A stretch of DNA of 64,000 bases, from assembly GCA_963817955.1 (NCBI GenBank), contig CAWFQK010000002.1, positions 832,001 to 896,000 of the forward strand, read 5' to 3'. The position numbers and the translations under genes are program-made. The notes beneath the pieces were generated by a model, which worked only from the letters and a program-made list of their open reading frames with translations, was not told the origin of the DNA and searched no databases. Source of the DNA: an uncultured Gemmatimonadaceae bacterium (GTDB lineage: Bacteria > Gemmatimonadota > Gemmatimonadetes > Gemmatimonadales > Gemmatimonadaceae). The first letter of the stretch is position 1, and every line of letters starts with the position of its first letter. This document shows, piece after piece, positions 6,165-50,550 of this stretch.

Positions 6165-6396
6165 CCGAGGGCCGGACGGCTTGTTTTGCCGCAGACGGCG
6201 CAACAGCTTTTAACGCAGAGGTCGCAGAGAACTGCAAGAGGACGCAGAGAACTGCAAGAGAACTGCAGAGAACTGCAAAAGAGAACTGCAGAGAACTGCA
6301 AAAGAGAACTGCAGAGAACTGCAAAAGAGAACTGCAGAGAACTGCAAAAGAGAACTGCAGAGGAAAACTGTAAGCGTACGGAAAAGGGAAGCGGGT

Positions 6397-6456
6397 CTAG
6401 GTGGAATGAACCGTGATTGCCGAGTCCACAATCATTCCGCCTATATCGTTAATGAT
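6397..6456 (-). pseudogene. 5' remnant of a GxxExxY-family (PD-(D/E)xK-like) gene
   Basis: Translates IINDIGGMIVDSAITVHST*; the following bases resemble a frameshifted LGPGL. Confidence 0.55.
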
Positions 6457-6635
6457 CCCGACCTGGCGATACCCTCGGAGCGTCACGACGGCTTCAGCCA
6501 AGACAGCTGCCAGGCGAGACAATCCTTTACGGTCCTCAGCAGTTCTCTGCGTTCTCCTGCAGCTCTCCTGCAGTTCTCTGCGTCCTCTTGCAGTTCTCTG
6601 CGACCTCTGCGTTAAAAGCTGTTCTGTCGGTCACC

Positions 6636-6690
6636 GAGATCCTTCGCTTGCGCTCAGGATGACAGCCCGTCGCTCAGGATGACAGCCCGT
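6636..6690. repeat. REP-like palindrome (GTCATCCTGAGC type) with tandem partial duplication
   Basis: GAGATCCTTCGCTTGCGCTCAGGATGACAG; CGCTCAGGATGACAGCCCGT occurs twice; related copies at 20817, 21155, 39791, 50502. Confidence 0.8.
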
Positions 6691-6761
6691 CGATCAGATC
6701 ACGATCTTCGCAGCCGCGTCACCGATTGCTGCGATTCACTCGTAGTGCAACAGTCCCGTAA

Positions 6762-6802
6762 TGAGTGGATGCCGAGGTCGACCAGACCCCGGCGTCCACT
6801 CA
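6762..6802 (-). terminator. Hairpin downstream of the MCP gene
   Basis: TGAGTGGATGCCGAGGTC...GACCCCGGCGTCCACTCA stem just past the MCP stop. Confidence 0.55.
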
Positions 6803-6812
6803 CCCTGGTTGT

Positions 6813-8894
6813 TCAGAACCCCATAGCCATATCTTCGTCGTCTGCACCAAAGGCAGCCGGCACGGCCACTCGCGAGCGCGACGGCACCTTACGTGGCACC
6901 GCCGCGGCACGCGGACGGCCTGTCGGAGCAGCCGGAGCTGCCGGTCGAACAGCCGCGGCAGGGGACGCCGCCCGGCTGATGCGGAATTGCATTACCGTTT
7001 CGCGCATGCTCGCCGCCTGTGCTGAGAGCTCCTCTGCTGCCGACGCAGACTCTTCCGAGTTGGCTGCGACCTGCTGGGTGACGCCGTTCATCTGATCTAC
7101 GGCAATATTCACCTGCGAGATGCCCTCCGTTTGCTGCTCGCTCGCGGCGAATATCTCTCCCATCACCTCGGCCACCTTGGCAACGCTCCCCGAGATCGTC
7201 TCCAGATTGCCGACGACTTCGTTCGTGATGTGTACGCCGCCTTCTGCATTCGCGACGGCACCTTCAATCAGGGTAGCCGTGTTCTTCGCCGCCTCCGCCG
7301 AGCGCATGGCGAGGTTGCGGACCTCTTCGGCGACCACGGCAAAGCCCCTCCCGGCGTCGCCTGCGCGCGCCGCTTCGACAGCGGCGTTCAGCGCCAGCAG
7401 ATTCGTCTGGAACGCAATCTCGTCGATGGTCTTGACGATTCTCGCTGTCGCGTCCGACGACTCCTTGATGCGGCCCATCGCGTCGGTCAGGCGCTGCATG
7501 CTCGCAACGCCGGCCGCGGTGCCGGCATTTGCGCCCTCGGCAAGCCCACGCGCTTCCTTTGCGTTCGCCGCCGACTGCTTCGCCATCGACGACATCTCCT
7601 GCAGGCTCGACGAAACTTCCTCGAGCGAACTCGCCTGCTCACTCGAGCCCTGCGCGAGCGCCTGACTACCGTGCGAGATCTGGTAAGCTGCCGACGCCAC
7701 CTGCTCGCTCGCGAGCACAACGTCGCCCAGAGTCTCCTCGATGTTCTCCATGGCCGTGTTGACCGCGGTCTTGATCGTCGCGAAATCCCCGGCGTACGAA
7801 CCTGTCATTCGCGCGGTCAGGTCACGGTCAGCGACCCGCTGCAGCACGGCTGATGCTTCCACGATTGGCGCCGTGACGGCGTCGAGCATGGCGTTCATGC
7901 CGCCCACCAAGGTGCGGAACGTGCCCTCGAACTGTTCCGCCCGGCCGCGCTCCGAGAGGCGTCCAGCGCGGCCCGCCACGGTAAGCGAGTCGGATGCTAC
8001 CGCCAGCGCCTGCAGCGTGGTGCGTAGCGTTTCCATCGAGCGGCCAAGCTCATCCTGGTCACCCCGGGCCACGACCTTCTGCTCAACATCGCCAGCCGCG
8101 AGTCGGCGAGCGGCACCAGATATGATACGCTGAGACTCGACCACCTTTCTGAATGCGTCGGCCAGCGTGCCGATTTCGTCATTCGCCGTGTACGTCACAT
8201 CTTGGTGTACGTCGCCATCCGCGATGTGGTTTGCCGCGGTCACGAGGCCGCGCAGCGGAAGCACGATGGACCGAACCACCAATACGGCAAACACCAGCAC
8301 CACCAGGAGTACCAGGACCAAGAAGGTCATCGTCACTTTGGCGTGGCTGATCACGGTTGCGCCCTGCGCTGCGGCGAGAGAGTCCGTCTCTGCGTCGAAT
8401 CGGGTGACGATGCTGTCTATGAGACCTGTGGGGACGCGGTCCAATCCCGCTAACACCTGATCGGCGCGCTGGGCATTATGATCGCCCCCGAACAACTTGA
8501 TCTGCTCGTCGTACTTGGTACCGAGCTCGTCGTGCATTGCCGTGAAACGGTTCAACATTCGAATGGCGCTGGAGTCCTTCGTCGAGCTCTTGAGCTTGCC
8601 GCCAAGCTCACGGACGGTGTTCTCGTCTGCCTTGAACGCGTTCGAGTACTTCTCGAACATCGCTGGGTCTTGGCCGCGCAGTAGAAGGTCCTTCCACTCT
8701 TGCACCTGCTTCTTGAACGAGACCTGCATCTGGCCGGCAACGACCTCATTGTTAACGGGCCCGTTGAGGAGCGCTTCGAACGTGTTCGACACGGCGAGTG
8801 TGTCGCGCAGGAGGTAGCCGGCAACGGAAGCCGACATCGCCATCATGACGGCAATCAGGACCAATATTTTGGTGGAGAACTTGAGTTTTCGCAT
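6813..8894 (-). CDS. Methyl-accepting chemotaxis protein
   Basis: Two TM segments, HAMP domains, signalling core [34 protein letters not shown]; start 8894 or 8915. Confidence 0.95.
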
Positions 8895-9027
8895 GAAAGG
8901 CGCGACTGCGCGCATCAAAGGTGTCGCCGCAACTGCATCACTAGGGGTTTGCGGTGGAGCATCAGCAGGGTAAGTCCTGCCCTGGTAGGGCAGGGTGAGC
9001 CATGCCTGGTATACAGCCTCGTCACAA

Positions 9028-9054
9028 GCTTCGACTGGTCCCTTGCGGACTTTA
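9028..9054 (-). promoter_or_regulatory. Putative sigma28 (FliA) promoter of the MCP
   Basis: TAAA-N15-GTCGAAGC on the minus strand versus consensus TAAA-N15-GCCGATAA. Confidence 0.55.
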
Positions 9055-9329
9055 GGACCGATTTTGCTTGGGAGCACGATGGTCATTGTCGTCAGGGCAT
9101 GTGCATTGCACCGGCTACAGACGACGCGCTCACCCCGCCTGCTTGGCATGCCTCCGGTAGCGCCCTTGACCCTCCCTCGCGCCACTTATACCTTCGCATG
9201 CACTCAGGTCCTTCGCTCCGCCCGCCGACGACTCCGCGACGACTCCGCGCTGTCACCCCGCATCCTGAAAGCGCGCGGCAGCACCTCGAGCCTCCCCCCA
9301 CACATTCTTCTCCTTCCTCCGCTGGTCAG

Positions 9330-10610
9330 ATGACGCCCTCAGGTGTCGTCACGACGTCCGTGAACATCGTCGAACTGAAGCGCAAATCCGTTCCGGAGCT
9401 CCAGGAGATGGCCGACGCCTCCTCCATCGAGGACTCCGCCGGACTGGGCAAGCAGGAACTCATCTTTCGCATCGAGCAGAAATTGCTCGAGCGGAGCATC
9501 GTGCTCACCGGTGAAGGTGTGCTCGAGATTCTGCCGGAAGGCTATGGATTTCTGCGGAGCCAGGATTGGAACTATCTCTACGGGCCGGACGACATCTACG
9601 TCTCGCCGTCGCAGATCAAGCGCTTCAATCTGCGCACGGGCGACACGGTGTCCGGACAGGTGCGCCCGCCCAAGGAGTGGGAACGGTATCTGGCGTTGCT
9701 CAAGGTCGAGTCGGTCAACGGCGACGAGCCCGATGCCGCCAAGACGCGCATCGACTTCGACAATCTGCGGCCGCGCTACCCGGAGGGACGCCTTCGTCTC
9801 GAGACGAAGGATGGCGACATCAGCATGCGGATCATGGATCTCATCGCGCCGATCGGCAAAGGCCAGCGCGGTCTGATCGTGGCGCCGCCGCGCGCGGGCA
9901 AGACGATCCTGCTGCAGAAGATCGCCAACGCCATCCGCGAGAACCATCCGGAAGTCACGCTGATCATTCTGCTGATCGACGAGCGGCCAGAGGAGGTCAC
10001 CGACACGATGGCCAACGTCGATGCGGAAGTGATCGCCTCGACGTTCGACGAGGAGGCGACACGCCACGTGCAGGTGGCGGACATGGTGATCGAAAAGGCC
10101 AAGCGGCTCGTCGAGAGCGGCAAGGACGTCGTGATCCTGCTCGACTCCATTACACGCCTGGCACGCGCGCACAATGCGGTAACGCCGCAGTCCGGCAAGA
10201 TCCTGTCGGGCGGCGTGGACGCCAAGGGGCTCGAGAAGCCTAAACGCTTTTTCGGCGCCGCGCGCAATATCCAGGACGGCGGGTCGTTGACGATCATCGC
10301 CACCGCGTTGATCGAGACCGGCTCGCGCATGGACGAAGTGATCTTCGAGGAGTTCAAGGGCACCGGCAACATGGAACTCGTGCTGTCGCGGAAGATCGCC
10401 GAGCGTCGCGTGTATCCCGCCATCGACATTGGCAAGTCGGGCACACGCAAGGAGGAACTGCTGTTCACGCAGGAAGAGCTCAATCGCGTCTATCTGTTGC
10501 GCAATTTCTTGTCGGAGATGCCCGAAGTCGAAGCGATGGAATTCCTCCTCAAGCAGATGTCACGCTCGAAGAACAACAGAGAGTTCTTCCAGCAAATGAC
10601 GCAGGGCTGA
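9330..10610 (+). CDS. rho: Transcription termination factor Rho
   Basis: [55 protein letters not shown]; start 9330 or 9360. Confidence 0.97.
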
Positions 10611-10624
10611 TCGGATCGCGCCCC

Positions 10625-11053
10625 GTGAACCTCGACCGCGGGCGACTGCTGGCCATCGATTATGGCGAGCGTCGGATTGGCCTGGCTATCAGCGATCCCA
10701 CTGGAACGATCGCCTCACCGGCCGGCGTCATTCTGCGCCGTGCCGGCAAGCGGCCACCGATCGCCGAGCTCATTCGACGCGCTGAGGCACTCGAGGCGCG
10801 CGGGTTCGTCATGGGACTCCCGCTCGACGGCAACGGGGACGAAACACCACGTTCGATCGAAGCGCGGGCTGTGAGCGCCGAGCTCGAGAAGCGGACGGGC
10901 ATGACCGTGACGCTGGTGGACGAGCGCTACACGACGGCGGTGGCTCTGCGGGCGATCCGCGAGATGGGCGGGTCGACGAGAGGACGGAAGGGAGACGTCG
11001 ATGCCCTCGCGGCTACGGTGCTCCTTCAGCATGCCCTTCAACTTGCCGGCTAA
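10625..11053 (+). CDS. ruvX: Holliday junction resolvase-like RuvX/YqgF
   Basis: LAIDYGERRIGLAISD, VDERYTT, DALAA motifs. Confidence 0.93.
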   Translation: MNLDRGRLLAIDYGERRIGLAISDPTGTIASPAGVILRRAGKRPPIAELIRRAEALEARGFVMGLPLDGNGDETPRSIEARAVSAELEKRTGMTVTLVDERYTTAVALRAIREMGGSTRGRKGDVDALAATVLLQHALQLAG

Positions 11054-12059
11054 CCGCCGGGTGCGCAGGGCGTTGTGCGTCGCCGCCACGGCGTTCGCCA
11101 CAGCGTGTGGCAGTGGAAGCGGGCCAACCGTACGCGTCACGATACCGCCTGGCGCGAGCCTGCGCGTTGCCGGCGACTCTCTCGCGAAAGCAGGCGTGAT
11201 TCACCTTCCGCGCGTCTTCCGTCTGTATGCGTCGCTTCGCAAGAGCGACCGAGGGATCAAGGCCGGCACGTACGTGTTGCATCGCAACGCAGGATGGGGC
11301 TTCGTGCTCGACGCGCTGCACGGCGGCAAGGGACTGGTCCACGTCATTACGATCCCGGAAGGCTTCTCGCTGTCCCAGATCGCGCCGCTGATCGCATCGA
11401 AGTTGGGTCAGCCGCTCGACTCCGTGGTGGCCGCGACTCGCGACACTGCGCTGCTGCATCGCCTGGACATCTCCACTGCCACGGCCGAAGGATACCTGTT
11501 TCCTGATACCTACACCTTTCCCGCCGGAACGACGGCGCGGGCGGCGGTGAACGCGATGGTCCGCCGTTTCGAGCAGGTATGGCAGCCGCAATGGACGGCG
11601 CGTCTCGACACGCTGCACCTGTCGCGGAACGACGTGATGGCGCTCGCGTCGATCGTGGAAACGGAAGCGCGACTACCTGAGGAGCGGCCGGTGATCGCGG
11701 CCGTGTACCTCAACAGGATGCGAGCCGGCATGTTGCTGCAGGCCGACCCGACGGTACAGTACGCGCTGGGCAAGCACGTCGCACGCCTCTACTACAAGGA
11801 TCTCACGGTCGATTCGCCGTACAACACGTACACGCACAAGGGGCTGCCGCCGGGACCGATCGCTTCGCCGGGACGGGCGAGCATCGAAGCGGCGTTGTAT
11901 CCGGCCAACGTGCCATACGTGTATTTCGTGGCTTTCCCGGATGGGCACCATGAATTCCGCCGCGATCTGGCCGGCCACGAGCAGGCCAAGCTCGCCGCTC
12001 GCCGTGCGTGGGATTCAGTCGCGCTGGCGCGCGGCGTGGATACCACCCGACCCAAGTGA
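11031..12059 (+). CDS. mltG: Endolytic transglycosylase MltG
   Basis: TIPEG, EGYLFPDTY, LASIVETE, LQADPTVQY, SPYNTY, GLPPGPIASPG; start 11031 or GTG 11061. Confidence 0.95.
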   Translation: MPFNLPANRRVRRALCVAATAFATACGSGSGPTVRVTIPPGASLRVAGDSLAKAGVIHLPRVFRLYASLRKSDRGIKAGTYVLHRNAGWGFVLDALHGGKGLVHVITIPEGFSLSQIAPLIASKLGQPLDSVVAATRDTALLHRLDISTATAEGYLFPDTYTFPAGTTARAAVNAMVRRFEQVWQPQWTARLDTLHLSRNDVMALASIVETEARLPEERPVIAAVYLNRMRAGMLLQADPTVQYALGKHVARLYYKDLTVDSPYNTYTHKGLPPGPIASPGRASIEAALYPANVPYVYFVAFPDGHHEFRRDLAGHEQAKLAARRAWDSVALARGVDTTRPK

Positions 12060-12815: not shown

Positions 12816-12893
12816 GCGCCGGGAACTCGCAAGAAACCGGCTCGCGTGTGGACGATGCGATACGAGGATCGGCTGGCCGGGGGGGGGACAACA

Positions 12894-12926
12894 CAAAGCC
12901 CCTGGCCAACTGGGCCAGGGGCTTTG
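12894..12926 (-). terminator. Terminator of the 23S-5S unit
   Basis: CAAAGCCCCTGGCC / GGCCAGGGGCTTTG 14-bp stem directly after 5S. Confidence 0.8.
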
Positions 12927-12934
12927 CAATGAGG

Positions 12935-13052
12935 TGCCGGCGACGGCCTACTCTCCCGCGCTCTCACGAGCGGAGTACCATCGGCGCTGTAGGGCTTAAC
13001 GATCGTGTTCGGAATGGGAACGAGTGTGGCCCCTACGCTCTAGTCGCCAGCG
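12935..13052 (-). rRNA. rrf: 5S rRNA
   Basis: Reverse complement contains CCCATTCCGAACAC, GCCGATGGTACT, GGGAGAGTAGG. Confidence 0.95.
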
Positions 13053-13194
13053 AATATGGTTGCTCGTGCCCGTCGCGCGTTCGTCGTGTGACCGAGGAGC
13101 GCGCAGCGAGCGACGAGAAACGATAGTGAAGTCCGAGGTAGATGCGTTTAGTGTTTCCTAATTGTTGCGTGCTTTGCGATACTCCTTTGGGGAG

Positions 13195-16169
<2,975 letters not shown>

Positions 16170-16298
16170 CAACAATTGGTCAAGCAAAGCACTGCATTCC
16201 TACACTTCATCGATCAAGCACATGTGACGCGCGTTGCCGCGCCTCCCATCCGCTCTATCGATGAGGATTCACTTCCCACGATCTACCTCAGACTTCAC

Positions 16299-16310
16299 TT
16301 GTCAAACAGC
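16299..16310 (-). promoter_or_regulatory. BoxA-like antitermination element
   Basis: GCTGTTTGACAA in the 23S leader. Confidence 0.6.
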
Positions 16311-16448
16311 GATTCTCGCGTGTCGAACGTGCGCGTGTGCGCCGTTCGGGGCGAGCCTTTCATTTTATGGAAGGCTCTGTCGATTCTCAAGTGGCGCCGC
16401 GTGAATTCAGCAGCACTCAGCAACGAGCTTCGTTAGCGAGGGGCGATA

Positions 16449-16477
16449 AGGATATCTCGAATTCACGCGGAGATCAA
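16449..16477 (-). promoter_or_regulatory. Sigma70-type promoter of the 23S-5S unit
   Basis: TTGATC-N17-TATCCT about 280 nt upstream of the 23S 5' end. Confidence 0.65.
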
Positions 16478-16538
16478 CCCCTGCACGCGATAGATTGGAC
16501 GGTTCCGTCTGACGTCGCAACCCGCCTCGAGTATGCCG

Positions 16539-20452: not shown

Positions 20453-20567
20453 AAATGGGGTGGCGCGACGGCAACCGGCCAGTCGTGAAAGTCGCTGGGC
20501 CCGTTGCGGCGGACCGTATCCCGCCGCCGGGCCACGCGAGTGACGGAATCAGAGATCAGCGACATAT

Positions 20568-20723
20568 ATGAAGGCAAAGGGAAAGAGCGGCTCGGACCAG
20601 GAGCCCATCGGCATCGTGATTTCGCGCGGAGCGCGTGGCGACCAGCGGCCCACGTTTTCTGCGTACGTGTGGGGACCGGCGCCAGAGGTTCCTGACGATG
20701 GGCGCGACGGCAAGATCGGATAG
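20568..20723 (+). CDS. Putative 51-aa small protein (MKAKGKSGSDQEPIGIVISRG...FSAYVWGPAPEV...)
   Basis: Lies between a sigma54-like promoter and a terminator; below the ORF-track cutoff. Confidence 0.5.
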   Translation: MKAKGKSGSDQEPIGIVISRGARGDQRPTFSAYVWGPAPEVPDDGRDGKIG

Positions 20724-20797: not shown

Positions 20798-20816
20798 GCC
20801 CGTGACAGGTGACGGC

Positions 20817-21180
20817 CTGTCATCCTGAGCAAAGCGAAGGATCGCTGTGAACGGCGCACAGCCTTTTAACGCAGAGGTCGCAGAGAACTGCAAGAGGACG
20901 CAGAGAACTGCAGAGGACCGTGAAGGATTGTCTCGCCTGGAAGGCTTGGCGGATGCCGTCGTGACGCTCCGATGGTATCGCCCAGGTCGGGCTCATCAAC
21001 GATATAGGCGGAATGATTGTGGACTCGGCAATCACGGTTCATTCCACCGATACGCGCTTCTCTCTTCCGTACGCTTACAGTTTTCTTTTGCCGTTCTCTG
21101 CGCCCTCTGCAGTTCTCTGCAGTTCTCTGCGTTAAAGTTGTTCGACCGCCCAGAGAGATCCTCCGCTTTGCTCAGGATGA
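20817..21180. mobile_element. Repeat-bracketed element, copy 2 (inverted relative to copy 1), REP-like caps at both ends
   Basis: REP 20817-20843, arm TTTTAACGCAGAGGTCGCAGAGAACTGC..., core with LINDIGGMIVDSAITVHST (20992-21048), reverse arm, REP 21155-21180. Confidence 0.7.
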
Positions 21181-21191
21181 AAGGCATCGCG

Positions 21192-21229
21192 AAAAAAAGA
21201 AGCCGGCGCGAACGCCGGCTCCCCTTTTT
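21192..21229. terminator. Bidirectional terminator
   Basis: A-tract, AGCCGGCG-CGAA-CGCCGGCT stem, T-tract. Confidence 0.7.
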
Positions 21230-21245: not shown

Positions 21246-21368
21246 CTAGCGACGGGTGGCCTTCTTCGCAACCTTGCGAACCGTCTTCTTGGCGGCGGTC
21301 TTACGGACCGCTTTCTTCGCACCAGCCTTCTTCGCGCCGCCCTTACGGGCACTCTTCTTTGCAGCCAT
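21246..21368 (-). CDS. 40-aa Lys/Ala-rich histone H1-like basic protein
   Basis: GGAGA RBS; MAAKKSARKGGAKKAGAKKAVRKTAAKKTVRKVAKKATRR; followed by a terminator. Confidence 0.7.
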   Translation of the reverse strand: MAAKKSARKGGAKKAGAKKAVRKTAAKKTVRKVAKKATRR

Positions 21369-24532: not shown

Positions 24533-24620
24533 GCAGTACCCTCGTAATTGCTGTGCGCGTGATTAGTGCTCTGACGCGAATATAGGATTGGCCGATTTCA
24601 CACGCAATAGCGGTTGGGAA

Positions 24621-24767
24621 CGAGACACGAGACACGAGACACGGGACACGGGACACGAGACAGACGAGATGCACGACACGAGTGCGCGGAGTGCGCGGAG
24701 TGCGCGGAGTGCGGAACGAACCACGATGCGCATCATCCCGTGTCTCGTGTCCCGTGTCTCGTGTCTC
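24621..24767. repeat. Inverted heptamer arrays (GAGACAC/GGGACAC) around GAGTGCGCG x3
   Basis: About 6 forward heptamers 24621-24662; about 4 reverse heptamers 24737-24767. Confidence 0.85.
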
Positions 24768-28117: not shown

Positions 28118-28152
28118 GTGTTTGGGACACGGGACCCGTGTCCCAAAAACTC
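28118..28152. repeat. GGGACAC-based palindrome between convergent genes
   Basis: TTTGGGACACGGGACCCGTGTCCCAAA. Confidence 0.65.
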
Positions 28153-38401: not shown

Positions 38402-38550
38402 TGATTCTTTCACTGCCTCCGCTGCTGCGGCGATCTGCATGATCAAATTGGTCGGCGGGCCGCCGTCGATCAGCACAGCCTCGTGCCACCGGACGCTTCG
38501 GCGGAGCGTCTCCAATGTCTTGCCTTCACGGTATTTCGTATGGCCTCCAC
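38402..38550 (-). pseudogene. Remnant of an uncharacterised helical protein family
   Basis: GGAGG RBS then ACG (possible mutated ATG) KYREGKTLETLRRS..., similar to MKYHEGSMRQALRRI at 56805. Confidence 0.45.
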
Positions 38551-38641
38551 CTGGCGACGGGGACGCTGAATAAGAACTACACCCCGGCGAGCGCCGCACG
38601 CGCCGGAGTGAAGAGCGAGCAACAGGCGTGCGACGTGTCGC

Positions 38642-39796
38642 GATTGCCGTCGGAAGCGACCGAATGGTCGTCGGAAGCGACCGAATGGTCGTCGGAAGCG
38701 ACCGAATGGTCGTCGGGAGTGACCGAATGGTCGTCGGAACCGACGGAGTCGTCTTCGGAAGAGTTGGAGTCGCGTTCAGACCAGTCGGTGTCTGCGTGAG
38801 AAGCGGTGGTCTTGCCTGTCACGCGAGGAGTCCGTCCTCGACACGACGGCCTGCGAGCTTCACGATCGGGCGTGGCGCCTGCACAAGAGACGATTCCATC
38901 GGCTACGTCAGCCATCCCTGCTGTTACGTCAGCCATTCCTGCTGAACGCGAGCGACTGGGTCGTGCACGCCGATCCATTGGCTGTGGACGCGGACCCATT
39001 CCACGTTGACACGAGTCTATTCCACGTCGACACAGGTGACTCCCTCGTGGCATTGCGACAGAGAGGCCTCAACGCCGGAGAGTCTGAGGTTGACGGCGAC
39101 GACTCCTCGCGTGACTCCCGTTGATCCCTCCGGTACGGCGTGCAGTTGGTGGTGAGCACGCGGGCATCCGAGCTGAACGAGCCGCGAAGCCTCCTGCACG
39201 GCCGCGAGTCCGATGGTGACTGCGAGGGGTTCGTGCTTGCACACAAGAGATTCGTGCTTGCGCGCGAGACGTTCGTGTTTGACCGCGCGCCGTGCCATCT
39301 CACCACGGGCGAGTCACCCCTCGACGCGCGTGGGTTCCACCTCAACCGGAAGGACTCCGCCCTGACCGAGACGCACTCTCAGGTGGACGTCATGGCATCC
39401 CAGCGAACGAAGCGGACATTGCCGGTGGACGCGCGGGAGAGGCTGGTGAACGCGCGGGAGAGGCGTGTTGACGAGAAACGGTCAGGTGTGGCGCGAGCGG
39501 CATTCGGGCTCGACACCGGGGTGTTCCATCTTGACCGGAGTGACTCCGCCCTGAACAGCGGCTAGTGCGAGCTGGATGCGCGGGAGTCCCTGCTCGATCG
39601 GCGCTCATTCGGTCTCGACCGCGAGGACTTCCACCTGCACACGCGTCAATTCGGTCTCGACCGCGAGGGATTCCACCTGCACACGCATCAATTCGGTCTC
39701 GACCGCGAGAGATTCCCTATGAGCGGGCGGGGATCCCACCTGAACACGCGGGCATCCCCTCTGCACGCCGACCGATCCCTTCTCGGCACAGAGATC
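38642..39796. repeat. Degenerate 21-bp periodic array, ~55 units in unbroken register
   Basis: e.g. GTCGGAAGCGACCGAATGGTC x3; alternating TTCGGTCTCGACCGCGAGGRM / TTCCACCTGCACACGCRTCAA. Confidence 0.85.
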
Positions 39797-39841
39797 CTTC
39801 GCTCCGCTCAGGATGACAAAGTACTGCAGTTCTCTGCGTTT
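39791..39841. repeat. REP-like palindrome plus a single GCAGTTCTCTGCGTT arm fragment
   Basis: GAGATCCTTCGCTCCGCTCAGGATGACAAA followed by CTGCAGTTCTCTGCGTTT. Confidence 0.75.
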
Positions 39842-42297: not shown

Positions 42298-42331
42298 ATG
42301 AGTTCATTCCCCTGTCGTCTAATTTTGTGCC

Positions 42332-43621: not shown

Positions 43622-43622
43622 C

Positions 43623-44780
43623 TCACCCTCCGAGCAGCTCCAGCACACGCGCGATTTCAGATTCAGTGTTGTAGGCGTGCGGCGACAGCCTCACCGATCC
43701 TTCGCGGAGTGAGTGCGAGACGCCCGCCTCTCGCAGCCGCTGGCTGGTGGCGAGCGAATCGCGCAGCTTGAGCGACACGATCCCGGCGTGGCTTGAGTGC
43801 TCGGGCGGGGTGACGAGGGTAACGTCGTCATGCGATTGCGCCCATGTCACTATTCGGTCAGTCAGGCCCGCGATATGGCAGGCAACCGCGGCCGGCCCCA
43901 GCTCGTGAAAGAGTTCCAGGCTAGCGTTCATGCCGACGAAATCCTGGAAGGGCAATGTGATGAACTCGAACCGGCGTGCGTCGTCGCGCCAGGTGAGATC
44001 GTAATCGAGCAGGCGCGTGAAATCGTCGGACCCGCGCACATCCATCCAGCTCACGTCGTGGGGTTCTATACGTTGCACGAGCTCGTCCCGAACGTACACG
44101 AATCCGGAACCCCAGGGCGACAGCAGCCACTTCTGCGCGCCGCACGCGAGAATGTCCACGTGGACTTCCGACAGATTCAGCGTCAGCGCGCCAAGCCCCT
44201 GGATGGCGTCGACCACGAAGAAGATGCCGCGTTCACGGCATGCCCGGCCAATCGCGGCAATGTCGAGCCTGGCCCCGGAGGCAAAGCCCACCCACGAGAG
44301 CGCCAGCACACGCGGCTCGATCGCGTCGAGGGCAGCGAACACGGTTTCATCATCGATCACTCCGCCGGCCGCCTGAATGCGCCTGTGCTCGATGCCGCGA
44401 CGGCGCTCGGCTTCCATCCAGGGATAGATGTTTGCCGGGAATTCGAGGTCCGGCGTCAACACGATGTCACCCGGCTCGAGCGGCAGCGAGAACGCCGCGA
44501 GGTTGATGCCGTAACTCGTGTTCGTGGCCAGCGCGATCTCGCGTGGACTGGCGCCGACCAACCGGGCGATGAGCTCGCGCGATCGCGCCAGCGCATCGAA
44601 CTGCAGGCGATCGGACAAGCGATACGGTGCGCCGCGCACTGCATTGAACTCGGCGGTCGCCCGCAGCGCGCGCTGCGGGAGCGCACCGGTGGAGGCGTGG
44701 TTCATGTAGACCGCTTCACCGGCCGCGGCCCACGGAAACTCGGAGGCGCGCAGCGCCTCAACGTTATAGGTGGTCGTCAC
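43623..44780 (-). CDS. Class V PLP-dependent aminotransferase (cysteine desulfurase-like)
   Basis: YMNHAS, VDAIQ, GAQKWL, RLSPHAYN. Confidence 0.9.
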   Translation of the reverse strand: MTTTYNVEALRASEFPWAAAGEAVYMNHASTGALPQRALRATAEFNAVRGAPYRLSDRLQFDALARSRELIARLVGASPREIALATNTSYGINLAAFSLPLEPGDIVLTPDLEFPANIYPWMEAERRRGIEHRRIQAAGGVIDDETVFAALDAIEPRVLALSWVGFASGARLDIAAIGRACRERGIFFVVDAIQGLGALTLNLSEVHVDILACGAQKWLLSPWGSGFVYVRDELVQRIEPHDVSWMDVRGSDDFTRLLDYDLTWRDDARRFEFITLPFQDFVGMNASLELFHELGPAAVACHIAGLTDRIVTWAQSHDDVTLVTPPEHSSHAGIVSLKLRDSLATSQRLREAGVSHSLREGSVRLSPHAYNTESEIARVLELLGG

Positions 44781-45658
44781 GGCCGCGCGATGTCCGGGAG
44801 ACCAGCGCCGCGCGGAATGGCCGCCCGCAACGCTCGTGGATCGAGCGCGTCGCGCAGGGCATCACCGAGCAGGTTGAAGCCGAGCACGGCGGACCCGATC
44901 GCGAGGCCGGGGAACACCGACGTCCACGGCGCATGGCGAAGCTGGTACAGGTCGCGCCCGTCGGCGATCATCGACCCCCAACTCGGCGTGGGCGGCTGGA
45001 CTCCCAGCCCGAGGAACGACAGCGACGACTCGGCCATGATGGCTCCGGCAACGCCGAGCGTCCCGGCGATCACGACGGGCGCCACGACACTCGGCAATAT
45101 GTGTTGAATGAGTATTCTCGTATCACGCGCACCCAGCGCCCGTACGGCCTGCACGAACTCCATCTCACGCACGACGAGCACCTGCCCGCGAACCAGGCGG
45201 GCCATGCCCGCCCAGCCCACCACTCCGATCGTGATGAACACAACAGTGAGCGACGGTTGGAGCGCCGCCACGAGGGCGATCAACAACAGCAGCGTCGGAA
45301 AGGCGAGCGTGACGTCTGCCAGACGCATGACCAGCTCATCGACCCAGCGGCCGTAGTAGCCGGCAAGCAGCCCGAGGACGACACCAAGCGACAGCGCGAT
45401 CCCTTGCGAGACGATGCCGACCGACAACGAGACGCGCGCGCCATACACCAAGCGAGCCCACACGTCCCGGCCCTGGATGTCAGTGCCGAACCAGTGATGA
45501 AATGACGGCGGCTGGAGCGAATTGATGAGATCCACGCCAAAGGGATCGTGGAACGCAAACAACGGCGCCGCCACGGCCATCACAGCCAGCAGCACGATGA
45601 CGCCCCCGCCGAACCAAACGCGCTTGTCCGTCTTCAAGCGATCCGTCGAACGACTCAT
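44777..45658 (-). CDS. Dipeptide/oligopeptide ABC transporter permease (DppC/OppC-like)
   Basis: HWFGTDIQGRD, EFVQAVRALGA, SFLGLG, LLGDALRDALDP. Confidence 0.92.
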   Translation of the reverse strand: MSRSTDRLKTDKRVWFGGGVIVLLAVMAVAAPLFAFHDPFGVDLINSLQPPSFHHWFGTDIQGRDVWARLVYGARVSLSVGIVSQGIALSLGVVLGLLAGYYGRWVDELVMRLADVTLAFPTLLLLIALVAALQPSLTVVFITIGVVGWAGMARLVRGQVLVVREMEFVQAVRALGARDTRILIQHILPSVVAPVVIAGTLGVAGAIMAESSLSFLGLGVQPPTPSWGSMIADGRDLYQLRHAPWTSVFPGLAIGSAVLGFNLLGDALRDALDPRALRAAIPRGAGLPDIARP

Positions 45659-46602
45659 AGCGGATCTCCGAGCTCCGGTGGTGTGCCCGGCCGCTGATGC
45701 TTCCAGCGGCGATGATGCCAGAGATATTGCTCGGGCGCACGACGCACCCACCGTTCCAGCATGGTCGTATAGGCAGCAACAATCCGGTCGACGTCGGCGT
45801 CGCGGTCGCCAGTGTCGGTCGCGTCGATGGGCTCGAAGGTGAGGTGATACCGCCCGGACGGCTGGCGCAGCGCCACGCCAAAAATGATCGGAGTGTCCAG
45901 ACGCAGCGAGAACACGGCCGGTCCGCGCGGTGTCTTCGCATAGCGCCCAAAGAACGGCACCCACGCGGACGCCAACCCAACAGCCCCCTGATCGACGAGA
46001 AACGCCACGGCACGGCCGCCACGCAACGACCGCGGTACGCGACGCACCGCTTGTTCGTCGGGCACTACCGTCATGCCTATCCGCTGCCGAGTGCTGGTGA
46101 GATACCGGTCCACCAACGGGTTCGCCATGTGGCGCGCGACCACGTCTATGGGGGTTCCCCGGGCTGCGATATAGGCCCCGCCAAGCTCCCAATTGCCCAG
46201 GTGGCCCGTGACCAAGATCAATCCCTTCCCACGGGCGAGCCGCTCTTCGACGAGGTCCCAGCCGTTGACCTCTTCGAACAACGCGATGATGTCCGACTGG
46301 CTGTACGACGGCAGGACGACGGTCTCGATGGTCGTCCTGCCGAGGTGCGCGTACGCGGCGCGCGCAATGCGCTCGATGTCCGGCGCAGTGCGTTCGGGAA
46401 ATGCCGCCGTGAGCTGGCGCAGAACGACTTCGCGGCGAATGCCGACCGGGCTGTACCCGAAACTCCCGATGTGCTCGCCGAACTTGGCGGCGTTGAAGAA
46501 GCCAAGGCGCCCGATCGCGGCCACCACGCTGCGTAGCGCGACGTATTCGACGCGATGCGTGAATGTGGGGCGGTGCGCGCCGGCGGCGGCTACGTCGTCC
46601 AT
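45655..46602 (-). CDS. Lipid A lauroyl/lysophospholipid acyltransferase (LpxL-like)
   Basis: GHLGNWE, DQ, PFFG, PEQYLWHHRRWK. Confidence 0.9.
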   Translation of the reverse strand: MDDVAAAGAHRPTFTHRVEYVALRSVVAAIGRLGFFNAAKFGEHIGSFGYSPVGIRREVVLRQLTAAFPERTAPDIERIARAAYAHLGRTTIETVVLPSYSQSDIIALFEEVNGWDLVEERLARGKGLILVTGHLGNWELGGAYIAARGTPIDVVARHMANPLVDRYLTSTRQRIGMTVVPDEQAVRRVPRSLRGGRAVAFLVDQGAVGLASAWVPFFGRYAKTPRGPAVFSLRLDTPIIFGVALRQPSGRYHLTFEPIDATDTGDRDADVDRIVAAYTTMLERWVRRAPEQYLWHHRRWKHQRPGTPPELGDPL

Positions 46603-47684
46603 TTGGTCCGATCTCCAGCGGTGTTGACGGCGCGCTCGTACCCGTCGATCATGGCCGATTCCGAGAAGTCGCGCTGTACGCGCGTGCGCGCGGCGACTCC
46701 CATTGCGGATAGCTTCTCGGCGCCGGTGAGGAACGCGGTCACGCCTGACGCGGTGTACGACGGGGCAGCCGCGGCAAGCAGCAATCCGGTAATTCCGTCC
46801 GCTACGTAGTGCTGCGTCAGTGGGGAGCGCTCGGCGATCACGGGCACGCGCAGAGCCATGAAATCGAGACAGCAAAACGCGCCGTCATCGCTCGCCGAAA
46901 CGGACCAGCCCACATCCGCGGCGCGCATGATGGCGTGTGCGTCGTCGCGCTCGCCGAGAAAGCTCACGATGCGGTTGACGCCCACAGCCGACGCATGCAT
47001 ACGCAACTCGTCCGAGCGCGAGCCCGTCCCGAACAGGGCGACATGGAGTGTAGGATGGCGCGGCGCGAGGATCGCGACGGTGCGGAAGAGCGCGCCAACG
47101 CGGTTACGGCCCGAGGGATCGTAATGACACGCGATGAGCAGGCCGGACGCTGGAGCCTCAAGGGATTCGCGCGATGCAGGCTCGACGCCATCATACGCAT
47201 TCACGTCGACACCGAGCGGTGCGACCATCGTGGAAATGGGCCAACCATGCGTGTCGAGACTCTTGAGCTCCCGCTCCGTGGTAACGACTACGCCGGCAGC
47301 GGCCAGCTTCAGTGCGAGCTTGCCGCTCCGTTGGTGATCCGGCGGCTCGAACGGCGCAATTCGTCGAAGCACGCTGCCGCGCCTTGCAAAGCGCATGGCC
47401 GAGGCGACGATGAAGTGGTCCCGTGCGGTACCGACGAGGGCCACCTCTATGAAGCGCGTCTGCAGCACTCTGCGCAGGTCCCAGGCATTGCTGGCGATTG
47501 ATGCCAGGGGGTCGATGAGCGTCGTGTCGAGCCCTGCATCACGTGCATGCCGCTCGAGGCGGCTCTCGCCGCAGCAGGCGACGGTTACCTGATGGCCGCG
47601 CGCCGCGAGCCCGCGCGCGGCAACGAAGATCGCGCGCGCACTTCCCGTCCACTGCATGTCTGTCAGATAGAACAGGACGCGCAT
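46590..47684 (-). CDS. Glycosyltransferase family 4-like protein
   Basis: GT-B fold features (GHQVTV, VSFLGER, PVIA, GITGLL). Confidence 0.8.
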   Translation of the reverse strand: MRVLFYLTDMQWTGSARAIFVAARGLAARGHQVTVACCGESRLERHARDAGLDTTLIDPLASIASNAWDLRRVLQTRFIEVALVGTARDHFIVASAMRFARRGSVLRRIAPFEPPDHQRSGKLALKLAAAGVVVTTERELKSLDTHGWPISTMVAPLGVDVNAYDGVEPASRESLEAPASGLLIACHYDPSGRNRVGALFRTVAILAPRHPTLHVALFGTGSRSDELRMHASAVGVNRIVSFLGERDDAHAIMRAADVGWSVSASDDGAFCCLDFMALRVPVIAERSPLTQHYVADGITGLLLAAAAPSYTASGVTAFLTGAEKLSAMGVAARTRVQRDFSESAMIDGYERAVNTAGDRTKWTT

Positions 47685-47685
47685 A

Positions 47686-49548
47686 TCAGACGTTGGCGGT
47701 CACTCGTTCGTCGCGGAACTGCAGGGAGTGGAGACGGAAATACGTTCCACGTTCGGCGAGCAGTTCGGCGTGCGTCCCCCGTTCCACCACGCGTCCGTGA
47801 TCGAGCACCAGGATCACGTCAGCATGAATGATGGTGGACAAACGGTGCGCGATGACGAACACCGTGCGGCCGGCGAGCAATCGGTCCACGGCTTCCTGGA
47901 CGAGTCGTTCCGACTCGGTGTCGAGCGCCGACGTGGCCTCGTCGAGGATGAGGATTGGTGGATCGACGAGAAGAGCGCGGGCGATCGCGAGCCGCTGGCG
48001 CTGCCCGCCGGACAGACGCGTGCCGCGTTCGCCGAGGACCGTCTCGTAACCGTCAGGCAACGCAACGATGAAGTCGTGGGCGTTCGCGGCTCGGGCGGCG
48101 CGCTCCACCTGCTCCTGCGTGAACCGCTCGGCGGCACCGTAGGCGATGTTATTGCGGACCGTGTCGTTGAACAGCACCGTGTCCTGGCTCACGATGCCGG
48201 TGAGCGCGCGAAGGGACGACAGTTTGATCTCGCGGGCGTCCACGCCGTCGAACAACACGCGGCCCGCGGTGGGTTCGTAGAAACGTGGAATGAGATCGAC
48301 GAGTGTGCTCTTCCCCGCCCCGCTCGCTCCAACGAGCGCCATCACCGATCCGCGCCGCGCCACGAAGCTGATGTCGCTGAGCACGGGCTCGGTGTCATAG
48401 GCGAATGACACTTCGTTGAATTCAATGCCCCGTTCGAGGCGCTCGATCACCTTGGTGCCGCGGTCGCTCTGTTGCTCGGTGGGCCGATCCAACACGTCGA
48501 ACAATCGCTCGGCGGCGGCCAGCGACTGCTGCGCCGTGGTGGGCGCCTGCGAAAGCTGTTTGAGCGGCGGCAGGAGCTGCATCACGAGCGTCATGAAGAC
48601 GATCAGACTACCAGCATCCATTCCTTTGCCACTCAACACATCGATAGCGCCAATCCAGAGAATCAGCACGGCGATGGACATGCCGATCACTTCCGTCAGT
48701 GGCTGCGATAGCGCGGCGACGCGATTGATGCGAACCATGCCTTCCGAGTACCGGCTGCTCGCCGAGCCAAACCGTTCATCCTCGTACGGTTCTCCGCCGA
48801 ACGACTTCACCATGCGTACGCCGCTCACCACTTCCTGCAATACGCTGGTGGCCTCGCCGAAGTCGTTCCGACTGCGGCGGTACCCCTTACGAAGTCTTCG
48901 CAGCACCGGCTGCAGCGCCAGCGTGAGCAGTGGCGCGACGATGAGCGACAGCAGGGTGAGCTTGACATTCATCGCGAGTAGCACCGCGATGGTCGTGACG
49001 ATCGTCGCCGCGTTCTGTACGGTCCGGGTCACCAACTCGGTGATCAGCACCTTCGTCTGATCGGTATCAGACAGGATCTTGGAGATGATCTGGCCGACTT
49101 TCGTCTGCTGGAAGTACCCGAGCGGCAGTCGCTGCATGTGTTCGAAGACCCGGTCGCGCAGGTCACGGGTGACGTATTCCTGCAGTGACGCAGCGAACTG
49201 ACCGGCCAGCCAGACGAAGACGTTCTTCACCGCAACGACAGCAACCATCACGAGGATGACGACCGCGAGCGAGCCCTTGGGATTGCGCGGATCGAGGAAG
49301 GCCCCGATGGTGACGTTCTGGAGCCGCGTGATCCAGCCAGAGTCCTTGGAGAGCAGACTGTCTTTTTGCTGGAACAGCGCGTTCAAGAACGGAATGAGCA
49401 GCGTATACGAAAACGCGCCGAGCGCGGCGGCGAGTGTGCTGCACACCACATTGCCCGTCATCCGCCACCAGTGGGGGCGCAGGAAGGGCAGCAGCCGTCT
49501 ATACGTGGAACTCGAAACGCGCAGGTTCTCTGGCCGGGATGGCGTCAT
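47686..49548 (-). CDS. MsbA-like ABC exporter (TMD + NBD)
   Basis: GASGAGKST, LSGGQRQR, ILILDEATS. Confidence 0.92.
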   Translation of the reverse strand: MTPSRPENLRVSSSTYRRLLPFLRPHWWRMTGNVVCSTLAAALGAFSYTLLIPFLNALFQQKDSLLSKDSGWITRLQNVTIGAFLDPRNPKGSLAVVILVMVAVVAVKNVFVWLAGQFAASLQEYVTRDLRDRVFEHMQRLPLGYFQQTKVGQIISKILSDTDQTKVLITELVTRTVQNAATIVTTIAVLLAMNVKLTLLSLIVAPLLTLALQPVLRRLRKGYRRSRNDFGEATSVLQEVVSGVRMVKSFGGEPYEDERFGSASSRYSEGMVRINRVAALSQPLTEVIGMSIAVLILWIGAIDVLSGKGMDAGSLIVFMTLVMQLLPPLKQLSQAPTTAQQSLAAAERLFDVLDRPTEQQSDRGTKVIERLERGIEFNEVSFAYDTEPVLSDISFVARRGSVMALVGASGAGKSTLVDLIPRFYEPTAGRVLFDGVDAREIKLSSLRALTGIVSQDTVLFNDTVRNNIAYGAAERFTQEQVERAARAANAHDFIVALPDGYETVLGERGTRLSGGQRQRLAIARALLVDPPILILDEATSALDTESERLVQEAVDRLLAGRTVFVIAHRLSTIIHADVILVLDHGRVVERGTHAELLAERGTYFRLHSLQFRDERVTANV

Positions 49549-49551
49549 GCG

Positions 49552-49695
49552 TCAGCGCCGAGGGGTGAGCAGCGATTCGCCGGCATTGGATGCCATTTCG
49601 ACCTCGAACCCATTGTCCCGCAAAAAGATGCGGTGAGGTTCGAGGAGCTCCGCCTCGTCATCTACCCAGAGGACGGATTTCGCCGATTGCGCCAT
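49552..49695 (-). pseudogene. Truncated response regulator, probably internally deleted PorX/PglZ type
   Basis: MAQSAKSVLWVDDEAELLEPHRIFLRDNGFEVEMASN joined to LLTPRR*; only 47 aa, phosphoacceptor region absent. Confidence 0.65.
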
Positions 49696-49780
49696 GCGCA
49701 AAATATAGCGGGCGGGGACGATGGCAGATGGCGGACGGGTAGCGGAGGGACGCGTGATAGGGCCAGATTGCGCTGTGCTC

Positions 49781-50170
49781 GTGAATTCCCCGCCATACGC
49801 TCTGGCACCAGCCAATTTTCGCTTCGCGGCGCTCGCCGCGTTGGCAGGGCGTGCGCCGCTCGGCGGCCAGCGGGAGGTGGCGCTGGCCACTTACCTCGCC
49901 GCCAGGCTGTCACATGACTGCCTCCCCGAGCGCGGATTGGCGCCGGCAATTCGCGCCGAACGAGCTTCGGCCGCCAAGGCTTGGCTGGCGGCGCTCACCC
50001 TGCCGGCACCGGTTCGGCCGGCGCTGGTGAGGCTGGTTGACGCGACCTCGGGTGAGGCGGGTGGCGCCGTGGGAGCGCTACGAGCTGTGATCACGGTCAC
50101 AGCGGGGCTGGTCGATCCGGCGTCGAGGCTGGAGCTGGAGCAGCTTGCGGCGGGGCTGGAGCGGGGGTGA
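49781..50170 (+). CDS. Hypothetical Ala/Leu-rich helical protein
   Basis: GTG start, coding-like composition, divergent from the LPS operon. Confidence 0.6.
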   Translation: MNSPPYALAPANFRFAALAALAGRAPLGGQREVALATYLAARLSHDCLPERGLAPAIRAERASAAKAWLAALTLPAPVRPALVRLVDATSGEAGGAVGALRAVITVTAGLVDPASRLELEQLAAGLERG

Positions 50171-50488
50171 GAGACGGGACACGGGACACGGGCGCGGCTT
50201 CGGGTTGTCGAGCATGCGTGCCTTCTCGCACCGGGCGGCGCAGCGTGGATTGGGCTCCGGGTCGTTGACCAGCTGGATGTCGCTGGCTGCTCCGTAGCGG
50301 TCGGCCCACCGGTCGGCGAGTTCCGAGTTTCCAGTGATGAGTGATGCGTTGCGCGTTGTTACAAACTCACAACTCACGACTCACAACTGGACACCCGAAC
50401 CTCGCCGACCGGCGATAGTGGCCTGCGAGCCAGGCGCCCTGGTGCGCACGACCCGTACACTCACAACTGACAACTGATCACTGACCAC
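50168..50488. repeat. Cluster of heptamer arrays (GGGACAC, ACTCACA, ACTGACA) around a possible four-helix-bundle remnant
   Basis: Arrays at ~50171-50192, ~50365-50388, ~50459-50487. Confidence 0.65.
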
Positions 50489-50501
50489 GGTACGCGCAAA
50501 G

Positions 50502-50550
50502 CCTGTCATCCTGAGCAAAGCCTGTCATCCTGAGCAAAGCGAAGGATCTC
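50502..50550. repeat. REP-like palindrome with tandem partial duplication
   Basis: CCTGTCATCCTGAGCAAAG x2 + CGAAGGATCTC. Confidence 0.8.

Follow-up and report, generated by a model that had tools for sequence, protein, structure and literature searches.

In Coxiella, the 23S rRNA intervening sequence (IVS) has a 28-bp inverted-repeat stem, carries tandem heptamers upstream of the S23p open reading frame (ORF), and is excised by RNase III; ORF-bearing IVSs, as in Coxiella and Leptospira, are regarded as selfish and have long been suspected of mobility (PMC4990558). Genes for Ssn nucleases lie between copies of a dispersed hairpin repeat of their own (PMC11893778), and intergenic DNA is rich in tandem heptamers in cyanobacteria and Xanthomonas, with an under-representation where the neighboring genes diverge (PMC4692102). 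We report a comparable arrangement in an uncultured Gemmatimonadaceae bacterium, based on a 64-kb stretch of its genome (C2:832001-896000; hereafter the window, whose positions are given without a contig name). We show that a palindromic cassette, in which inverted arrays of the decamer GAGAACTGCA enclose a gene for a GxxExxY protein, has undergone internal deletions, and that copies of the resulting gene-less versions came to occupy dozens of intergenic locations, chiefly at gene 3′ ends.

The genome comprises 4.53 Mb in nine contigs, with ~64% G+C and a completeness of 94%. An initial annotation of the window, made from its letters alone, had listed six intergenic sites with short-unit arrays, and all six proved real, with arrays reported by Tandem Repeats Finder at every one (Table 1). 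The inverted arms are genuine at 6.2, 20.8, and 24.6 kb, as judged from the z-scores of their RNA folds, and the fold at 50.2 kb is weaker (z -2.8; central hairpin of ~45 bp). Within the window, GAGAACTGCA occurs 26 times against 3.8 expected (shuffle maximum, 9), and a second unit, GTCATCCTGAGC, hereafter the cap, occurs seven times against 0.48 expected when counted at ≤1 mismatch (positions 6652, 6672, 20819, 21170, 39806, 50505, and 50524, distributed over four sites). Taken as a whole, the earlier observation was partly confirmed and its interpretation partly supported: of three proposed pairings between a repeat and a decayed gene start, one family holds fully, the second holds in part, and the third fails. 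Four sites had been placed between convergent genes, which is correct for sites 1, 2, and 4; site 3 is divergent, and at sites 5 and 6 a Pfam-supported gene is present on just one side.

Table 1. Positions of the repeat elements and gene remnants in the window, together with the intact genes and stand-alone cap hairpins found outside it.
Feature	Coordinates	Strand	Remarks
Site 1, short (class A) decamer-armed cassette	6196..6690		arrays; RNA fold z -15.2; shared class A junction
Site 1, left GAGAACTGCA array	~6213-6362		
Site 1, core	6363-6534		
Site 1, right inverted array	6535-6613		
Site 1, two cap units	6640-6690		
GxxExxY gene remnant, site 1	6400..6456	-	codons 2-20, then stop; tblastn E 5.8e-5
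Site 2, class A cassette	20812..21184		opposite orientation to site 1; RNA fold z -12.8
GxxExxY gene remnant, site 2	20992..21045	+	codons 2-19; tblastn E 1.2e-4
Site 3, hairpin with ACGAGAC/ACGGGAC heptamer arms	24620..24767		RNA fold z -7.7
Site 4, perfect 13-bp hairpin from GGGACAC word	28121..28147		DNA fold z -5.9
Site 5, shortened copy of dispersed 21-nt-periodic repeat	38452..39791	+	1.34 kb; no Pfam/NCBIfam match
Decamer-cassette end fragment	39795..39840	-	one cap unit (39806-39817) and a single decamer (39825-39834)
Site 6, composite repeat, 392 nt	50174..50559		87% identical to C1:448129-447744
Intact GxxExxY genes, outside window	C2:315678-316052 and C2:764008-764379		125-aa proteins
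Stand-alone cap hairpins of congener G009 (L201-L203)	C3:29780-29970, C15:153610-153790, C27:102390-102570		

The pairing that holds fully is that between the decamer and the GxxExxY gene. Across the genome, GAGAACTGCA is present in 318 copies grouped into 66 clusters, 48 of which consist of plus-strand copies followed by minus-strand copies; 47 of those enclose a core of more than 50 nt. Exactly two PF13366 genes are encoded, and both are enclosed by GAGAACTGCA arm pairs, whose cores span 486 and 497 nt. The remaining 45 cores measure 128-248 nt. The number of decamers per arm varies from 1 to 11, and the arm of the GxxExxY cassette can be described as an array of GCAGAGAACT/CGCAGAG words. 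When compared by blastn with the full cassette, most short cores retain positions ~31-179, namely the 5′ untranslated stretch and 19 codons, and stop at the same final base. An alignment of all 42 copies of this 5′ segment revealed that 40 short copies possess an identical junction, ...GGTTCATTCC followed directly by a 33-nt filler, as well as common derived substitutions absent from both intact genes. An identical junction at 40 unrelated loci indicates that one deletion product (class A) was copied many times. In a second deletion class, of eight copies, what remains of the full-length cassette is a 3′ piece from near position 453, with a piece of the 5′ untranslated region also detected in seven of the copies and ending at position 105-106 in six. 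Pairwise identity among the short copies averages 87.8% (range, 79-97.5%).

Both decamer elements of the window belong to class A. By tblastn, the GxxExxY-like start that had been proposed to accompany the decamer arms was recovered at sites 1 and 2, with the match confined to residues 2-20; the stubs read to residue 19-20 and stop before the GxxExxY motif. The window copies therefore do not encode the GxxExxY domain and are remnants rather than family members. Site 1 begins 2 nt past the stop codon of an MlaD-like gene and covers positions 1-179 of the full-length cassette by blastn, with the deletion junction of its remnant aligned between 6403 and 6404. Site 2 lies between the terminators of two small convergent genes, is capped at both ends (20819 on the plus strand, 21170 on the minus strand), and carries the shared filler at 21046-21078, directly after the gene remnant. 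The proposed status of the decamer elements, as non-autonomous derivatives of a cassette that carries a gene, is borne out by the two intact genes, both flanked by the same repeat, by the 40 common-junction copies, and by the eight copies of the second class.

Movement could be dispensed with altogether if the arrays had arisen by replication slippage in place and the stubs were local genes that decayed independently. The variable number of decamers per arm would fit such an account, as would the insertions and deletions in multiples of 21 nt within the repeat at site 5. It is contradicted by the 40 loci with an identical junction, the same 33-nt filler, and the same derived substitutions, a combination for which independent decay cannot account, and orthologous sites in relatives are empty, as described below. 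We consider this explanation next to untenable.

Two neighborhoods of the decamer elements deserve description. Between the MlaD-like gene and rho, the window encodes a chemoreceptor with MCP signalling and HAMP domains at 6813-9185 on the minus strand, a 650-nt part of which has two other copies that are 77% identical (C7:105864-106510 and C4:1703940-1704586). Gene order differs among congeners, with MlaD followed directly by rho in G016 and G014. At site 2, the facing mini-genes (20566-20722 on the plus strand and 21252-21368 on the minus strand) are conserved in metagenome relatives and have no Pfam match. One is a 51-aa ORF with the conserved core ...DQEPIGIVISRG...YVWGPAPE..., and the other is a Lys/Ala-rich basic ORF of 39 aa with a clear terminator hairpin.

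Orthologous loci were gathered by a protein search with TldD, which yielded 78 metagenome loci. DNA downstream of TldD aligned in 69 of these, and none of the 69 contained the decamer. In ten loci, homology of the flank ends at window positions 21188-21198, and the element has its edge at 21184. One locus (L127) bridges site 2, running from the small basic gene and its terminator across ~36 nt to the stop of the conserved 51-aa convergent ORF; at the bridged point, the present genome contains about 450 nt more. The hairpin at site 3 is absent from all 24 bridging metagenome loci, which contain no heptamer words against nine here. Most of their spacers are shorter by 120-200 nt, with homology picking up again at 24610, ten bases from the hairpin. 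The comparison of orthologous intergenic sites that had been suggested for the window accordingly gave empty sites in relatives at both 20.8 and 24.6 kb. Small shares were found in only three sequencing runs, all soil metagenomes (0.15, 0.08, and 0.00), whose contigs of 51-779 nt spanned no element. Within a genus set of 31 genomes, where the flanking genes are only about 66% identical to those of the other 30 by DNA search, the decamer array proved lineage-specific, with 149 doublets here versus a single one, in one of the 30 congeners.

The decamer elements favor the 3′ ends of genes. Convergent gaps contain 18 of the 47 arm pairs, tandem gaps 25, and divergent gaps 4, compared with 689, 2096, and 688 for all gaps in a crude gene call based on G+C content at third codon positions (GC3). 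Such a preference would be expected of hairpins that serve the host, whether akin to repetitive extragenic palindromes (REP/BIME-like) or to short tandemly repeated repetitive sequences (STRR-like), acting as 3′-end mRNA stabilisers, terminators, or nucleoid sites, with the small gene a passenger that tends to settle and persist in hairpin tips and has no role in their spread. A bare hairpin between convergent genes at site 4 and the GGGACAC-type arrays that flank ordinary genes, including EF-Tu, point in the same direction, and the heptamer repeats of Xanthomonas and Nostoc are placed similarly and are transcribed (PMC4692102). Left unexplained would be the persistence, across phyla, of a separate word for each gene clade, the purifying selection on the gene and its invariant putative catalytic residues, and the multiplication of a derivative with a useless 20-codon stub; moreover, the site-2 and site-3 spacers of all relatives work without the element. 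On this evidence, a purely host-serving role appears unlikely.

We know of no function for PF13366/TIGR04256 or for PF05635/TIGR02436, both very large families. The two intact GxxExxY genes score 136.8 and 134.1 bits against TIGR04256 (cut-off 35) and 132.3 bits against PF13366 (cut-off 22). They differ at 17 synonymous-codon and 5 non-synonymous-codon positions (pN/pS ~0.10) and are under purifying selection. Seven residues, Gly22, Gly24, Glu27, Asp67, Glu77, Lys79, and Arg120, are invariant in 29 genus sequences, and Tyr30 is conserved in at least 90% of them. By analogy with the fold, the E...D...ExK residues are candidates for catalysis. A search of the Protein Data Bank (PDB) by sequence returned no matches. 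AlphaFold predicts the protein with a pLDDT of 94.5, and Foldseek found no match to this model at E ≤ 0.001. The top VIA-align neighbors are all PD-(D/E)xK nucleases (Z of 8.2 for BpuSI, 7.8 for Cas4 SSO0001, 7.3 for BglII, and 6.5 for Hjc), although a Z of 7-8 is the usual best for models without a clear match. At this level, the predicted structure supports compatibility with a PD-(D/E)xK fold and indicates no subfamily. No sigma-70-type promoter was recognized in the full cassette, a consensus that is little informative for this organism.

The enclosure of GxxExxY genes by inverted repeats extends well beyond this genome. GxxExxY genes occur in all 31 genomes of the genus set, and inverted repeats flank 18 of 25 testable congener loci versus 1 of 50 control loci, taken as windows shifted by 1 kb. 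With a single GxxExxY protein as query, relatives of 36-60% identity were gathered from at least eight phylum-level groups (Chloroflexota, Bacteroidota, Planctomycetota, Verrucomicrobiota, Vicinamibacteria, Gemmatimonadota, Burkholderiales, and an archaeal bin), and inverted flanks were present at 17 of 24 loci from other phyla versus 1 of 46 controls. The arms are built from related words, namely CGCAGAG, CGCGGAG, CACAAAG, CGCGAAG, CGCCGAT, CGCAGAT, and CACGGAT, and these words track the gene clade, being CGCAGAG-like at orthologues and CGCGGA-like at a distant clade. At least six copies of the consensus CRCNRAK in the two 150-nt flanks were counted at 14 of 28 genus loci (0 of 53 controls) and 15 of 24 cross-phylum loci (1 of 48 controls), and at none of 25 loci of the four-helix-bundle genes described below. 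This last contrast may be the more telling part. A search of full-text literature, with subscription journals outside its coverage, found no account of GxxExxY genes enclosed by inverted word arrays, nor of their gene-less derivatives.

These data also bear on a nuclease-repeat system without self-mobility, modeled on Ssn and its NTS repeat, in which the GxxExxY protein would cut word-bearing DNA and thereby modulate uptake, recombination, or defence, and the repeats would spread through ordinary recombination or transformation rather than via the protein. As with ssn, copies of a dispersed hairpin repeat of its own border the gene on either side (PMC11893778). The catalytic-type residues are conserved, and an occurrence in at least eight phylum-level groups fits frequent transfer, in line with one survey whose table lists PF13366 as 'Unknown' with 'multiple transfers' (PMC3424549). 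GxxExxY, however, is not a GIY-YIG protein, just two genes stand against ~47 arm pairs, and the words lie mainly in cassettes rather than around many host genes. Amplification from a common junction would have no reason under this model, which we judge improbable.

A second gene family is enclosed in the same manner. Five PF05635 genes, encoding four-helix-bundle '23S rRNA IVS' proteins, are present in the genome at 58-100 bits (cut-off 33.8), none of them in the window; the four that were scanned score 54-98 bits against TIGR02436 (cut-off 24). As the initial annotation had proposed to check, intact genes of this family do lie between inverted repeats: four of five are flanked by inverted arms, each pair with its own words, comprising TCAGTCA-type heptamers, a ~95-nt unique arm with TTGTGAG heptamers (two genes, types b and c), and 17-mers with 11-mers. 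Each arm of the two-gene type has ~100-140 copies elsewhere, and the gene interior has one other copy. In the genus set, the family is found in 28 of 31 genomes, with inverted flanks at 25 of 26 loci versus 3 of 50 controls. The tie between these arms and the four-helix-bundle gene family is real. Many gene-less arm copies likewise support the existence of derivatives of this family, although the window copy at 50.2 kb has arms only and no gene remnant. Site 6 reads from GGGACAC heptamers into the ~95-nt 'long arm' of type b/c from 50243, then into inverted ACTCACA-type heptamers that form the central hairpin, and finally into two cap units; it contains no gene. The pairing of heptamer arms with a four-helix-bundle-like start did not survive a tblastn search with all five proteins, which found nothing at the six sites (best E 0.15, elsewhere); no remnant of such a gene is present anywhere in the window.

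The sole four-helix-bundle match in the PDB by sequence is 2gsc. The proteins also resemble Avd (weak NF033474 match; PMC10053308), the arms form very stable RNA stems, and the genome encodes a reverse transcriptase. One might thus envisage an RNA-level element, in which IVS-like inserts spread by reverse transcription with the four-helix-bundle protein as an Avd-like cofactor. The single reverse-transcriptase gene (C4:732178-732693; 425-aa open frame), however, adjoins none of the five four-helix-bundle genes, and the GxxExxY cassettes share the design with a protein of predicted DNA-nuclease fold. We regard this route as very improbable.

The window itself contains a 23S rRNA gene (13194-16168) and a 5S rRNA gene (12935-13051), together spanning 12935-16168 on the minus strand. 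Rfam matches across the window are limited to these two and one tRNA, and with no 16S match in the 64 kb, the 16S gene seems to be unlinked from 23S-5S. The 23S gene matches its model end to end (2975 nt versus a model length of 2925) and contains no large intervening sequence.

The remaining repeats of the window appear as generic layers. GGGACAC/ACGAGAC heptamers account for 387 matches in 118 clusters genome-wide. When Tandem Repeats Finder arrays were paired by reverse-complementary unit, 70 inverted pairs emerged, the commonest being heptamers of the GGGACAC and ACGAGAC types (19 and 12 pairs). Inverted heptamer arrays of various units enclose EF-Tu, Fic/DOC, a methyltransferase, DUF480, and a DDE_5 fragment. 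Because such arrays surround ordinary genes, the GGGACAC-type heptamers are not the partner of one gene, as had been supposed. Site 3 combines heptamer arms with a core array of the 9-mer GAGTGCGCG, lacks a gene remnant, and occupies the divergent promoter region between a PmbA/TldD-family gene and an alcohol dehydrogenase; site 4 occupies the 33-nt gap that separates its convergent genes. As separate observations, the EF-Tu gene (C2:654327-655683, L200; 400 aa, three EF-Tu Pfam domains) sits between inverted GTTGCTG heptamer arrays, just 3-4 nt from the ends of the array pair. At C9:32809-34008 (L197), inverted AACTCAC heptamer arrays surround a 200-aa ORF with a partial DDE_5 transposase domain, a possible case of an insertion sequence that settled in a heptamer hairpin.

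The GTCATCCTGAGC units, described earlier as REP-like palindromes, do cap four sites but are neither palindromic on their own nor REP-like. Alone, they fold no better than shuffles (z 0.20 and -0.24) and pair only with an inverted partner. Searched as a 25-mer at ≤1 mismatch, the cap is present in 81 copies here and in 16 of the 31 genus genomes, with up to 131 copies, a patchy distribution that suggests a separate mobile or expanding element. In G009, which has the 131 copies, stand-alone cap hairpins consist of two 25-mers in inverted orientation, separated by 16 nt, and tandem 20-mers come after them. The cap is a separate, genus-wide hairpin element and not a REP. Consistent with the earlier expectation that no classical transposase of the REP-associated tyrosine transposase (RAYT) type would be involved, the PF01797 profile had no matches in this 94% complete genome. 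A small GIY-YIG partner gene, also anticipated, was not recovered: PF01541 matches just two long ORFs, of 646 and 467 aa.

These layers are nested in a fixed order from outside to inside: heptamers, cap, decamers, gene. Decamer cassettes lie between two inverted caps, the caps often lie between inverted heptamers, and gene-less elements are often found inside older hairpin elements. Together with the empty cap hairpins of G009, this order suggests insertion into hairpin tips, and it would also be expected of one long composite palindrome that was variably truncated. The claim that the elements target each other would fit both the nesting order and the stand-alone hairpins of G009. Several decamer elements carry extra repeat modules outside their caps, inverted on the two sides, giving palindromes with additional layers; one such module starts AACAGACTGTTGAA..., and another reads ...GGGGAAATGAGTGGGCGAATTGCCT. 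They were seen at C2:676141-676680, C4:1374799-1375323, and other places, and in the window at 6690-6755.

The third proposed pairing, of a 21-mer array with a helical-protein start at site 5, was mistaken: the array is a 1.34-kb copy of a non-coding dispersed repeat with 11-13 copies that are 74-88% identical. The repeat, made up of ~60 degenerate 21-nt units, extends up to 2.2 kb in its fullest copies (the fullest being C4:1406170-1408350). Differences in length between copies are multiples of 21. We considered whether it could be a gene, as it contains open frames of up to 474 aa. Substitutions fall evenly over the codon positions (e.g., 21/18/15), and without codon-position bias or a Pfam/NCBIfam match, the repeat was assigned as non-coding. 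A small ORF lies at the left end of ~5 copies, part of which the window copy retains. Nothing was found to tie this repeat to the cassettes beyond the decamer-cassette end fragment that adjoins it, with its one cap unit and one decamer.

Given these results, the reading that we favor, with a slight lean above even, is one of palindromic gene cassettes accompanied by stripped-down copies, with the cassette protein acting in trans on its own word arrays. In a full cassette, a long hairpin carries a single small gene at its tip, encoding either a 125-aa GxxExxY protein, a presumed nuclease of the PD-(D/E)xK fold, or a ~105-aa four-helix-bundle protein, and the arms are inverted arrays of a short word specific to the gene lineage. 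The protein would recognize the word arrays of its own cassette, probably in the form of a DNA hairpin or cruciform, and would supply a cutting or binding step in trans through which full and gene-less elements are copied or retained, in the manner of RAYT with REP or Ssn with NTS. Transcribed arms should fold as an IVS-like stem, which would render the insert harmless. The GGGACAC-type heptamer hairpins and the cap hairpins would be separate, older palindrome layers on which cassettes land, and not components of a single system. How the elements move is inferred from these patterns.

A more specific possibility, which we hold tentatively and rate below that reading, is that GxxExxY proteins are word- and structure-specific nucleases that read a heptamer-like word, roughly CRCNRAK, in each arm of the enclosing hairpin and drive a spread, free of any transposase, of cassettes and gene-less derivatives into the tips of existing intergenic hairpins, with the four-helix-bundle IVS proteins behaving likewise with other words. 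The target hairpins would then include terminators and cap hairpins. Such a route would account together for two of the largest orphan families of small genes, for the intervening sequences of 23S rRNA, and for STRR-like heptamer arrays in many phyla.

Several observations weigh against the trans-acting cassette. No target-site duplication was recognized at ten elements, where the palindrome carries on outward through nested modules. Matches to the long arm of the four-helix-bundle type are mostly solo half-elements joined to other modules, with three like-arm pairs among 110, unlike what simple cut-and-paste of a whole palindrome would predict. The relatives with empty sites are different species-level lineages with flanks 73-90% identical, rather than strains of one population, so that the comparison indicates gain in this lineage and not present-day polymorphism. 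Short copies that are 79-97.5% identical imply that the burst is old, and it need not be ongoing. Seven of 25 congener loci and seven of 24 cross-phylum GxxExxY loci gave no inverted repeat by the test, and the CRCNRAK consensus was written after viewing the same loci, such that its enrichment is partly built in. The 3′-end preference rests on crude gene calls, and nuclease activity, DNA binding, and transposition are predictions drawn from sequence.

Even so, the genome offers an unusually clean genetic argument that genes of this kind reside in self-copying elements, with a parent cassette, two deletion classes, ~47 arm pairs, empty sites, and a gene under selection, and it links two very large families of small genes to what looks like mobile DNA. 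If the protein does read its own word array, this would constitute a new kind of nuclease-repeat partnership and a possible source of sequence- or structure-specific nucleases, and it would account for heptamer arrays as well as for rRNA intervening sequences. From a practical standpoint, the stubs and arms yield false ORFs and terminator-like hairpins that annotation pipelines will misread.

The closest published element is the ORF-bearing 23S rRNA IVS, and the closest logic is that of Ssn/NTS and REP/RAYT. To these precedents, the present genome adds common-junction amplification, deletion classes, empty orthologous sites, a selection test, and a cross-phylum comparison of words. With the IVS, the cassettes share an inverted-repeat stem, ORF-adjacent tandem heptamers (variable in number in the IVS), and an S23p/PF05635 protein (PMC4990558); four of the five PF05635 genes here have this IVS-type design. 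In contrast, the IVS sits in helix 25 or 45 of 23S rRNA, whereas the cassettes are intergenic, have much longer arms made of word arrays, and are accompanied by gene-less copies in ~100 places. An unrelated second family, GxxExxY, also uses the same design here.

The Ssn system, with its NTS/SRM hairpin repeats, resembles the GxxExxY cassette in combining a small nuclease gene, a cognate hairpin repeat on both sides, and dispersal of that repeat (PMC11893778). The predicted fold differs (PD-(D/E)xK versus GIY-YIG, with no small GIY-YIG gene found in this genome), and the arms are tandem word arrays rather than a single hairpin motif. The gene-less copies, unlike those of Ssn/NTS, retain a gene stub, which establishes their descent from the cassette. 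REP/REPIN-RAYT systems similarly tie a dispersed palindromic repeat with many non-autonomous copies to a cognate gene that is present in one or a few copies and bordered by that repeat; here, by comparison, no Y1 transposase was found, the cap is not self-folding, and other gene families are involved. Miniature inverted-repeat transposable elements are likewise short (~370-500 bp for the elements here), non-coding, and multi-copy, with terminal inverted repeats, and arise by internal deletion of a longer parent. The parent in this case encodes a protein of predicted nuclease fold that falls in no known transposase family, no target-site duplication was recognized at the ten elements noted above, and the 'terminal inverted repeats' are word arrays of variable length. 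Finally, the GGGACAC/ACGAGAC arrays behave similarly to the STRR and GGGNATC heptamers of cyanobacteria and Xanthomonas, except that many of them form inverted pairs enclosing genes or elements; the abstract of PMC4692102 mentions no link to GxxExxY or four-helix-bundle genes.

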